DNA of 64,000 bases, taken from the NCBI GenBank assembly GCA_008632985.1, contig QPGO01000063.1, positions 62,001-126,000 on the forward strand, given 5' to 3'. This stretch comes from Psammoneis japonica (lineage: Eukaryota). Shown piece by piece: positions 35,155-37,642 of the stretch; within the stretch, counting starts at the first letter, position 1; every line of letters starts with the position of its first letter. The notes beneath the pieces are model-generated. The model searched no databases. It worked only from the letters and a program-made list of their open reading frames with translations, and had not been told where the DNA came from. A program made the position numbers and the translations under genes.

Positions 35155-37642
35155 ATGGCAACACAAGTTCTGGTCCCCTTCTCACACAGCAACCGTTGCT
35201 TTGATCGCACTTGTGCTGACAATGACAACAGTCATTTCAAAATCAAGCATGGAGTGACGTGTTCCAGCTCTGGGTGGGACCTCGCACCACTGAACTGCAA
35301 CACAATTGTTTTTCATCATCCGTTGCATGTTTCGCACGTGCATTTCTACGTGTTCCATCATTAAAAATTGTTCCACACTGCCTGTTTTGCGAAGCCAAAG
35401 GCTTTCTGTTGTCTGCACTCATGTCAACAAAAATGCGCTGGGCACATTCTTTAATGTCTAAAGAGTGCACCCGGGCACACTGTAAAGAATGCGCTTCAAG
35501 TGTGGAGGAGGAGACACGTTCGCAAAATTGCCTCTTTTTCTGTTGGCGATCATTCATGTGTTCATTGCTTGATGGTTTTACTGCGGAGCTCGCACGTAGA
35601 ATTCTGCGGGCCCAATGTCACAAAAAGTCCCACCTGGGACTGGAACCCGTTGAGTGCCGCTTCCCAGTGCCACTGCCATGGCAATGGCAAAGGAAAAGAC
35701 AGTTGAGGCGGCTGAAAAGATGGGACTGACGATGTCCAACGAGAAGGCTGAAAAATGGCTTGGCACCAGGTGCTGCGAAAAGAAGAGCAAGCAAAAGCAC
35801 AATGGAATGCCAGGCAATCTTGGCCGTTTCCTTGTTCTCATTGGCGACTGCGATTCTTTGTTGATGCTGCACGAGCATGCACCAAAAAACTGCGTTTCAA
35901 TGGACCCAAAGAGTGTCGTGCTTTTCTGCAAGTGCAAGCGCAACGAGAAAGGCGTTCTTTTGCGTGGAGACAATGATGAGATTGTGAAAGATGTGCGCAG
36001 TGCTCCCATCGAATGTGCGGGTGAGTGGAAGGATCCAGATTGTGTCGCCAGCTTGCGCACCGCAGCAAATGTGCTCCACGAGATTCACGATCAGTGCGGC
36101 AAACTCCAGAGTCATTGCGCTGACTGCATTCGTCTTCCACCAGAGGACCGATTCAAGGGCTGCGATGCACATTCGGGCCATCCGAAGCTCCGCCGCAAAG
36201 GAAGTCCCGTGTTCTCTGAGGTGTGGAACAATTGTCGCGTGCAAAACAAGAAGGATGGGGCAAAGTGCAAGAGCCATGGTTGCGAACAATTCTCACCTGA
36301 GGACATGCACATGCTCCGAAACCACCTCCTCTCAAGCAACACGACACAAGGCCTCCAGTTGTTCGTGACAATGCTCGCTGCCATCCGCCTCTTCCTCCGT
36401 CAAGATGAGTTCAGCGACATGGAGACATCCAATTTCCTCACCACCCTGACCGTCGTGACAGCAACGGGCGTGCATGGGTCAGTTGCTGAAATTCAAGGAA
36501 AGTCTGATCCACATCCAGCTCGACCCACATTGTGGGAGGAGGAAGAGTTTCCTGAATTTTGCCCACTTCGTCATTTGTGGATTTATCTCCATGTGAGCGG
36601 CATGAAGGGTGGACACCTGTTTCCAAGTGAAAAAGAGCTGGCAAACATGCCAGAGGATGGGGTGAGCAAAACCAAGATGGAACACTGGAAAGTGATGGAC
36701 ACTCTCCAGAAAATGTTTCGCACAGTGTTGAACAAGCCCAACGTCAAGCTTGGAACACACAGCTTTCGCAAGACAGCTTGCCTTTTCTGCATGTGGGCTG
36801 ACGCAACAATGGCGGACGTCATGAAGAGCGCTCGCCACAAGACCCTGAAGCACGCCGAAAAATGCCGCATGGACGCGTTGTCGCCAAAGGACATCGGTGC
36901 CATTCATGATGATCCCATGGAGTGCGTCCCTTCCAAGTGGAAGTGTGTCCCACGAGAAAGCGAAGGCAACTTGAGTCAGATAAATGCCCCTGCAGTTCCA
37001 TTCCAAAAACCGATTGGACAACTCACCTGTGATTTCATTTTTCGAAAGCCAGTGATCCCTCCAAATCATCCGGGCGCAATGGATGTCACTTTTTTGGTTG
37101 ATCAAGCAATGAAGTGGCGCAGGGCGGGAGACTCCAATGCTGTGCTGGAAGATGTTCTCTCGAAACTGCCGATCGAACAAGCCTCTCAAGTACGACAAGC
37201 CTGGAAAATGAAACTCAACGAAATTGCAAGTGTGATCGAGTGCATTGTTGCACCTGCAGCTGCCAGTGCACTCACTGGTGGTGTTGCTGCGGGTGAGAGT
37301 TTGCTTGTCAAATCAAAATCGTTGAACAAAAAAAAGAGAGGATCGGATGGCAATGACCTTGAAGACCGTCACAAGCTGAAGAAGAGAAAAATGAAGACGG
37401 CAGAAAAGCTGGATGTTGTTGTCAAGATTTGGGAGCAGTGCCATGAGCAAGGCCAGCCATCAGTGACAGAGGGAGCCAGAAAATTCATCCAGCAGCAGGC
37501 TCCACCAATCGTTGGTTGCTTCCAAAACCACTGTAACTCCAACGCGGAACGGTTCTGCCGCAAGTGGCCAACACTCCAACACACCAAGTTCCCTTGCAAG
37601 GGAAAAGCCAATGAACCCTGCACCGGATCGTCTGGGGATTAG
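35155..37642 (+). mobile_element. Crypton(S)-like tyrosine recombinase gene, inactivated (MITE insertion; predicted catalytic Tyr to Cys)
   Basis: LFLRQDEF (R), QGKSD (K), CPLRHL, GTHSFRKT (HxxR), SARH (H), AEKC in place of the expected Y; removing the MITE plus one TSD restores a 695-aa ORF from ATG 35155. Confidence 0.8.
35256..35651. mobile_element. 396-bp MITE related to 8333-8722, 4-bp TSD GAGT
   Basis: GACGTGTTCCAGCTCTGGGTGGGAC ... GTCCCACCTGGGACTGGAACCCGTT; GAGT on both flanks. Confidence 0.85.

Follow-up and report, generated by a model that had tools for sequence, protein, structure and literature searches.

How a gene for a tyrosine recombinase comes to keep 662 codons open and to encode a single tyrosine, the catalytic nucleophile being among those lost, is the question raised by a locus in Psammoneis japonica. 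The locus lies in the 64,000-nucleotide stretch analysed here (the window: GenBank assembly GCA_008632985.1, contig QPGO01000063.1, positions 62,001 to 126,000, forward strand); all positions given are those of the window. A first-pass annotation, made from the letters alone, had described the element as a Crypton, i.e. a DNA transposon with a tyrosine recombinase, in which the dinucleotide TA (TpA) had been lost while CpG and the reading frame survived. Taken as a whole, the evidence makes it very probable that this is a Crypton-type copy inactivated by insertion of a miniature inverted-repeat transposable element (MITE) and by hypermutation at the DNA level, on both strands, of TpA to TpG or CpA.

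The open reading frame (ORF) of 662 codons (35654..37642, + strand) has no internal stop codon, and its 1989 nt contain five TA dinucleotides (starting at 36584, 36981, 37191, 37534 and 37640, the last being part of the TAG stop), an observed/expected ratio (o/e) of 0.04. Base composition alone predicts 115 TA; at the level of ordinary DNA in the window (TA o/e 0.46-0.88) 53-101 would be expected, and the Poisson probability of five or fewer is at most 3.5e-17. CG occurs 92 times (o/e 0.70), and TG and CA 186 times each (o/e 1.69 and 1.36, respectively). The codons chosen tell the same story when compared with the host ORFs of the window: TTA and CTA make up none of 54 Leu codons (76 of 482 in host ORFs), GTA one of 42 Val codons (51 of 365), and T|A across codon boundaries is found at one of 660 junctions (217 of 5201). 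Tyrosine accounts for 1/662 residues (0.2%), compared with 1.9-5.2% across 80 aligned homologues and with 143/5212 codons in the 11 Pfam-supported host ORFs (Fisher p = 8e-7), whereas methionine stands at 3.8%, its nearest two homologues having 2.3% and 2.5%. The counts reported in the first-pass annotation (about five TA, a single Tyr, no internal stop, abundant CG and frequent Met) are thus borne out, as are its codon positions: the TGC following SARH is Cys404, and that at 36779-36781 is Cys376 in KTAC. In the GDC and GGH motifs, which it also named, the altered residues are encoded by TGC at 35849-35851 and CAC at 36614-36616.

A Pfam scan of the window protein found no domain. A word-index search for full-length relatives returned two, P0002 (688 aa), which is 52% identical over its full length with no frameshift, and P0003 (757 aa; 24% identity); a search for shorter relatives found none. 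A profile of these three proteins, run against 1.84 billion representative proteins, matched 1797 at E<=1e-3, of which 454 reached E<=1e-30; most are 600-800 aa long. The homologue alignment used throughout consists of 80 roughly full-length sequences chosen from the best 150 of the 1797, plus the window protein. Against Protein Data Bank (PDB) sequences the profile matched Cre only, at a non-significant level (E 0.56). An AlphaFold model, which is of P0002 rather than of the window protein and was built from the homologue alignment, has a predicted local distance difference test score (pLDDT) of 90.2 and a predicted template modelling score (pTM) of 0.75. Foldseek searches of the PDB with this model gave Cre chains as top matches (E 6.3e-8, probability 1.00, target-normalised template modelling score 0.65-0.71), with later matches to XerH, XerA, IntI, XerD, lambda integrase, Tn1549 integrase and yeast Ndc10. 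As judged from the fold predicted for its relative, the window gene is a member of a large Cre-fold tyrosine recombinase family that is absent from Pfam. In the N-terminal half of the family there is a Cys-x2-Cys...Cys-x2-His motif, invariant or nearly so (C190, C193, C205 and H208 in P0002) and possibly zinc-binding, which is unbroken in the window copy (about 36107-36170).

The recombinase is the only enzyme seen. Pfam scans of 35 of the 150 listed homologues (up to 1284 aa) gave no domain, hence no attached reverse transcriptase (RT), and those of 16 open frames in the upstream 1.8 kb gave no match, neither to an RT nor to RusA, although heavy mutation could mask a weak domain there; neither RT nor RNase H domains were thus found by Pfam in the window protein, the 35 homologues or the upstream frames. 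Feature neighbours in the ESM Atlas, which are leads only, carry NDC10_II, GCR1_C, DUF3504, Phage_integrase or DUF3435 domains and come from Oomycota, Bacillariophyta and fungi. Kojima & Jurka 2011 (PMC3212892) describe the CryptonS elements of oomycetes and Phaeodactylum tricornutum as encoding a recombinase only, without GCR1_C and with a conserved C-terminal region, and as having short terminal direct repeats (4-6 bp in Cryptons), mostly TATGG. The window element is similarly small, with a single long recombinase ORF, no GCR1_C, a conserved family-specific C-terminal region and Atlas neighbours from Oomycota and Bacillariophyta, and so appears to fit a stramenopile-type Crypton. It differs from CryptonS in that repeats of the TATGG type were not found and in that the window copy is dead, by MITE insertion and loss of the nucleophile. 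Agreement with the CryptonS clade is in indirect features only: the missing GCR1_C, the C-terminal region and the stramenopile-type neighbours. The name Crypton recombinase, given at first pass, is in keeping with the Cre-like fold, the conserved R-K-HxxR-H-Y set and the lack of RT or other Pfam domains.

The full R-K-HxxR-H/W-Y set, present in the family, is incomplete in the window copy, which keeps five of the six residues (Table 1). The column of P0002 Tyr439, which is Tyr in every one of the 80 homologues and Cys404 here, sits nine residues past the invariant His. A nine-residue spacing from His to Tyr is usual in tyrosine recombinases. Because Cys404 replaces the nucleophile Tyr while R249, K283, H369, R372 and H395 remain, the window copy is to be regarded, on its aligned residues, as a dead member of the tyrosine recombinases by descent and not as an active enzyme. 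The catalytic Tyr-to-Cys change noticed at first pass is accordingly that of an invariant column, and Cys or His is not the family residue at these sites in the 80-homologue alignment.

That TA was lost and not gained is beyond doubt because the 80-homologue family fixes the ancestral residues. The 16 tyrosines of P0002 that align with the window protein have become six His, six Cys, two Phe and one Leu, with one Tyr kept; no Cys or His of P0002 corresponds to a Tyr in the window. When all changes that one TA>TG or TA>CA step inside a codon can produce are tabulated (Y>C, Y>H, I>M, I>T, L>P, L>S and V>A, here TA-type changes), 29 are forward, from P0002 to the window, and three are reverse (one-sided sign test about 1e-6, by hand calculation). 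At eight family columns with a Tyr majority the window protein has Cys at four, His at two, and Leu and Tyr at one each, whereas its other conserved residues are kept (W 4/4, H 6/6, C 7/8, R 8/9). Over 162 family-conserved columns, scored by leaving one sequence out, the window protein shows 12 TA-type changes, compared with a mean of 1.0 and a maximum of 4 in the 80 others. Since the total of changed conserved columns, 48, is close to the mean of the others, 45.1, the window copy looks, TA-type changes apart, like a normal member of an active family. The proposal that TA is ancestral, made from the letters, holds not only on the 12 Tyr>Cys/His changes to none and on the tabulation it had called for, but also on other copies of the MITE and of the upstream repeat, which keep TA. 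Both DNA strands must be affected because the counts of Tyr>Cys, which is six, and Tyr>His, also six, are equal, as are those of TG and CA. As far as comparison allows, rather than new mutations watched as they arose, the spectrum consists almost only of T/A>C/G changes at TpA. A search for relatives at the DNA level, made with the alignment of three sequences, returned a single distant locus, L001, from a metagenome (29% identity, broken frame, TA o/e 0.60), which serves only as a baseline for composition.

The gene begins upstream of the 662-codon ORF. A piece of 34 codons aligns with residues 3-26 of P0002 (score 41; shuffled sequences score 17.4 +/- 3.8, and none of 5000 reaches 41), and removal of 400 nt, i.e. 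the MITE and one copy of its target site, joins this piece in frame to CCG at 35657, giving 695 codons in total. As read from this alignment, the gene is physically broken by the MITE after codon 34, a point missed at first pass; the start then given, 35155, proves to be the true gene start, and the 662-aa ORF to be the gene minus its first 34 codons. A second copy of the MITE is present in the window (35254-35650 matches 8331-8721 in a blastn search of the TA-poor tract against the window). The family of ~390-bp elements, with terminal inverted repeats (TIRs) of roughly 25 nt and a 6-bp target duplication, is matched by thousands of contigs of run X1, one of three runs of a single sample; very many of these stack on 35208-35759, with loose ends at 35648-35650.

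The two copies of the MITE differ in the way that the gene differs from its relatives. The nested copy has 7 TA in 394 nt, the 8-kb copy 24 in 388 nt, and in their well-aligned ends seven sites are TA in the 8-kb copy but TG or CA in the nested one, with none the opposite way. The nested MITE does, however, retain more TA than the gene around it (7/394 nt vs 4/1983 nt, Fisher p = 0.0006), which suggests insertion into a gene already undergoing mutation, with the process going on afterwards. Within a 13-kb TA-poor region the 8-kb copy stands out as an unmutated island (TA o/e 0.81, CpG o/e 1.68); it is either a recent arrival or too short to be a target alone.

Segmentation of the window into two states by TA content gave nine TA-poor tracts (o/e 0.0-0.11), which occupy about half of the window. 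Pfam matches are absent from them, and every host gene with Pfam support falls in ordinary DNA (TA o/e 0.46-0.88). It is thus foreign or repeat DNA alone that has lost its TA, and the genes nearby have been spared. The tract with the Crypton ends sharply: beyond its right-hand edge TA recurs at 37640 (in the stop codon), 37663 and 37675, so that normal density is back within about 20 nt of the stop, and another copy of the element (X2 record 9, among contigs of the one sample) ceases to match at 37646, ~7 nt from the tract end. This other copy has internal deletions and about 4% other letters; no second Crypton copy was found within the window. To the left of the element the tract takes in a multi-copy repeat. 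Of about 950 differences to other copies in contigs of the three runs, the 40 best supported were considered; 39 are inside this upstream repeat and one is in the recombinase gene, at 36829. In 24 of the 40 the window has CA or TG where TA is found elsewhere, one is the reverse, and in three the window has CG vs TG. The site at 36829 is CG in the window and TG in 4/4 covering run X1 contigs, a CpG transition between copies or strains. A similarity of 28-34 nt between 33331-33386 and 35033-35082, and a contig joint from 35018 back to 33363, hint that the repeat unit extends ~200 nt to the left of the TA-poor edge or that the repeat is tandem elsewhere.

Loss of TA is decoupled from decay of CpG, and in this tract is far ahead of it. 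The CpG o/e of the Crypton tract, 0.70, is the highest of the nine TA-poor tracts (0.08-0.70; ordinary segments 0.90-1.02), and every CpG-poor segment of the window is also TA-poor. Because CpG is near-normal in the tract, the process does not ride on methyl-cytosine decay. The first-pass annotation had gone further, in stating that TA loss precedes CpG decay: the decoupling stands (TA 0.10 with CpG 0.70 here, CpG down to 0.08 in other tracts), whereas the order in time is drawn from a cross-section, of which an earlier loss of TA is a reasonable reading. The 128 TAs that survive in all the TA-poor tracts are not a random sample. Relative to ordinary DNA, residual TA is 4% for TAT, 7% for TAC, 9% for TAG and 22% for TAA; among the survivors, TA followed by A is enriched 2.2-fold, with TAT at 0.45 and TAC at 0.71. 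The process appears to prefer T-A-pyrimidine. Of all TA contexts the two Tyr codons, TAT and TAC, show the strongest depletion, and it is for this reason that a tyrosine recombinase has lost its nucleophile.

Table 1. Features of the Crypton locus and of the second MITE copy (positions in the window; TSD, target-site duplication)
Feature	Position	Strand	Details
TA-poor tract with the Crypton	33573..37639		24 TA/4067 nt, o/e 0.10; CpG 0.70; TG 1.72; CA 1.45; sharp edges
Upstream multi-copy repeat	33573..35023		12 TA/1451 nt; all frames without Pfam match
Presumed 5' non-coding part of Crypton	35024..35154	+	between upstream repeat and ATG
First 34 codons of recombinase gene (MATQVLVPFSHSNR...)	35155..35256	+	ATG at 35155; alignment to P0002 N-terminus
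MITE-like insertion, 394 bp	35257..35650		TIRs 35257-35280 / 35627-35650; TSD GGAGTG (35251-35256) / TGAGTG (35651-35656)
Main body of recombinase gene	35657..37642	+	661 codons + TAG stop; predicted N-terminal/core-binding region, catalytic domain, family-specific C-terminal region
Nucleophile position, Cys404 (TGC)	36863..36865	+	aligned column Tyr in 80/80 homologues
Other five catalytic residues, all intact	36398..36838	+	homologue alignment columns
Arg249 (CGT)	36398-36400	+	column of P0002 Arg284, Arg in 80/80
Lys283 (AAG)	36500-36502	+	column of P0002 Lys318, Lys in 80/80
His369 (CAC)	36758-36760	+	column of P0002 His404, His in 75/80
Arg372 (CGC)	36767-36769	+	column of P0002 Arg407, Arg in 76/80
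His395 (CAC)	36836-36838	+	column of P0002 His430, His in 80/80
Second MITE copy	8334-8721		TIRs 8333-8357 / 8698-8722; exact 6-bp TSD CTGGTG

The course of events that would account for these observations is as follows. A Crypton-type DNA transposon copy of ~2.6 kb would have reached from roughly 35.0-35.15 kb to about 37646, carrying a single gene, of 695 codons before its interruption, for a Cre-fold tyrosine recombinase. After the copy had settled, the 394-bp MITE would have inserted behind codon 34. A process acting at the DNA level would have turned TpA into TpG or CpA (A:T to G:C) on both strands, removing about 93% of the TAs, and the protein would have lost 15 of its 16 tyrosines, with Cys or His replacing 12 of these, among them the nucleophile, while the other five catalytic residues stayed. 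The process would be restricted to repeat DNA, its edges falling no more than about 20 nt from the element end, and would be largely independent of CpG decay. That it acts on DNA, and on both strands, is well supported. Its chemistry may be enzymatic: a polynucleotide adenosine deaminase that targets DNA which is repeated or silenced would convert adenine within a T-A context to inosine. For and against such an enzyme the balance is about even. Because the nested MITE has kept more TA than the gene around it, action over more than one episode can be inferred.

A process with the same signature has been reported from the alga Bigelowiella natans, in mutation-accumulation lines of which integrated giant-virus and virophage DNA undergoes T/A>C/G hypermutation at TpA only (Mettrop et al., bioRxiv 10.64898/2026.01.13.699255). 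That preprint proposes an ADAT2-like deaminase for this hypermutation, and reports that transposon domains are enriched among coding sequences of B. natans that are depleted in TpA and enriched in CpA+TpG. The two cases are alike in that change is almost exclusively T/A>C/G and at TpA only, that foreign DNA is affected, and that nearby genes are spared. They differ in host lineage, in that new mutations were measured in B. natans whereas the end state alone is seen here, and in that the target here is a tyrosine-recombinase transposon with a nested MITE. Diatoms are not mentioned in the portion of the preprint's text available, and searches of the full-text literature turned up no account of diatom repeats losing TpA.

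The alternative that survives best is a non-enzymatic or repair-linked bias, in which error-prone repair or replication in silent chromatin would cause a slow change of T>C at TpA with no directed deaminase. With the end state alone visible, and with all nine TA-poor tracts somewhat poorer in CpG than ordinary segments, as is long-silenced DNA, such a bias has something to recommend it; it is nonetheless improbable, given how extreme the depletion is (o/e 0.0-0.11) and how sharp its edges are. Conservation that is otherwise as in relatives, at 48 changed columns against the mean of 45.1, points to a fast and selective loss of TA. The same spectrum arises in B. natans, moreover, at about 6e-7 per site per generation and in some lines only (bioRxiv 10.64898/2026.01.13.699255).

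A different kind of alternative is that the gene is no relic but a domesticated, Crypton-derived host gene of the DUF3504 type, which lost the catalytic Tyr under selection and is kept for a non-catalytic role. The 662 open codons and the five catalytic residues kept are as such a gene would have them, and repeated domestication of Crypton recombinases, in which catalytic residues were lost, is on record (PMC3212892). The DUF3504 genes likewise retain a Crypton recombinase fold without the catalytic Tyr; they are, however, described in that source as conserved, single-copy, selected genes that have lost several catalytic residues, whereas the window copy is split by a MITE and appears to have lost its Tyr through the mutational spectrum. 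Neither A>G nor T>C changes can, by the genetic code, turn any sense codon into TAA, TAG or TGA; all that can happen is that TAA or TAG is lost or that TAA becomes TGA. Because this spectrum is unable to create stop codons, the open frame is no evidence of selection, and the first-pass remark that the reading frame survives, although correct as to the 662 open codons, is uninformative on function and overlooks the break after codon 34. For the same reason, TAA and TAG being nearly absent, long open frames occur in TA-poor tracts elsewhere, e.g. one of 583 codons at 17016-18764 that has no Pfam match, and others. Since, in addition, 15 of 16 tyrosines and not the catalytic one alone are gone, the non-coding MITE and upstream repeat show the same TA loss, and a second, internally deleted copy is present in the contigs, domestication is very unlikely.

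Inactivation of a transposon copy at the DNA level must also be set against editing of RNA. Change of A to G with a preference for a 5' U/T is typical of RNA adenosine deaminases. A-to-I editing of transcripts by an ADAR- or ADAT-like enzyme, fixed in DNA by reverse transcription, could leave such changes, and editing with this preference is discussed in bioRxiv 10.64898/2026.01.13.699255. The element encodes no RT, however, and no RT domain is seen by Pfam in its flanks; changes in sense and antisense are equal (six Tyr>Cys, six Tyr>His); the nested MITE and the adjoining repeat were mutated in place; and the tract ends about 7 nt from the point at which the other copy ceases to match. Neither signatures of a retro-copy (poly-A, target-primed insertion) nor changes limited to a transcribed strand were seen at the locus. 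The route through RNA is, on this evidence, still less credible than domestication. The first-pass argument, that a DNA transposon is affected and hence RNA editing is not involved, pointed in the right direction; better grounds for it lie in the equality of the strands, in the mutations carried by the upstream repeat and by the non-coding MITE, and in the edge at ~7 nt.

Hyperediting by APOBEC3 or ADAR in animals acts on reverse-transcription intermediates or RNA and leaves strand-biased signatures. The hypermutation proposed here resembles it in being a clustered set of deaminase-type transitions that disable mobile elements, and differs from it in that a DNA transposon and its non-coding neighbours were altered in place, on both strands equally. 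Some long-read platforms make systematic miscalls at modified motifs, and the runs all come from one sample that may be the assembly's own source, but an artefact of assembly or base calling, in which a TpA modification of silenced repeats would be read wrongly as G, can be dismissed as next to impossible. TA is a palindrome, and the miscalls would need to give TG consistently at certain sites but CA at others; copies in one run differ at these sites; an unmutated MITE copy lies within a TA-poor tract; and in B. natans it was true mutations that yielded this spectrum.

Several points weigh against inactivation of a Crypton by hypermutation of its DNA, or against parts of it. At its presumed ends the element showed no convincing terminal direct repeats and no target-site repeats, and its 5' end was not located; the motif AAGCCAANNAAC, present at 35034 and 37605, occurs at chance level (7 matches vs 7.2 expected). 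Movement of Cryptons without an RNA stage is the accepted model (PMC3212892) and is taken over here from the literature as there described, and the case for mobility of the family in this genome depends on a single further copy, seen in contigs. No unmutated copy of the element came to light, and the ancestor of the gene is reconstructed from the 52%-identical P0002 and the family consensus, so that changes at individual DNA sites are not directly observed. CpG in the tract, at 0.70, is somewhat under the ordinary 0.90-1.02 and hence not wholly untouched. Finally, four of the seven TAs surviving in the nested MITE precede A, the least-affected context, and its higher retention of TA may in part reflect context rather than the time of its arrival.

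Repeat-induced point mutation (RIP), as known from Neurospora and other fungi, changes C to T, mostly at CpA, creating TpA and stop codons. The pattern in the window is like RIP in its dense, context-dependent transitions on both strands, in its restriction to repeated or mobile DNA with sharp borders, and in the killing of transposon genes. By contrast, the chemistry is the opposite: TpA is nearly absent here, CpA and TpG are in excess, and dead genes stay open, with no stops. RIP of the fungal type is ruled out by this opposite direction. It may be that the window records a defence that mirrors RIP, i.e. a repeat-directed deamination of DNA adenine that is episodic, spreads over nested insertions, stops at the element edge and is independent of cytosine methylation decay; this proposal is held tentatively, with confidence slightly short of even.

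Around the locus, three paralogous genes with a C-terminal MYND zinc finger lie on the same strand (25383-26501, 31306-32406 and 38084-39292), one of them also with an Armadillo repeat; they have ordinary TA content, and two TA-poor transposon tracts sit between them. Elsewhere, an island of 380 nt with ordinary TA content (59021-59400) separates two TA-poor tracts; no inverted repeat was found in it.

The locus adds an unusually clear case, on a known kind of transposon, to a hypermutation described only recently, and provides a natural test of a process for which the sole account to date is one preprint, on an alga that is unrelated. As the target moves as DNA, a route through RNA is unlikely, and the nested MITE serves as a relative clock for the process. 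For annotation there is a warning, in that dead transposon genes and random frames in TA-poor tracts stay open and are called by gene finders, yielding proteins that are poor in Tyr and rich in Cys, His and Met. If the proposal of a repeat-directed defence is right, its preference for T-A-pyrimidine would erase Tyr codons and leave dead genes with intact open frames, and, together with the report on B. natans, such a system would sit in two distant branches of the group of stramenopiles, alveolates and Rhizaria (SAR).

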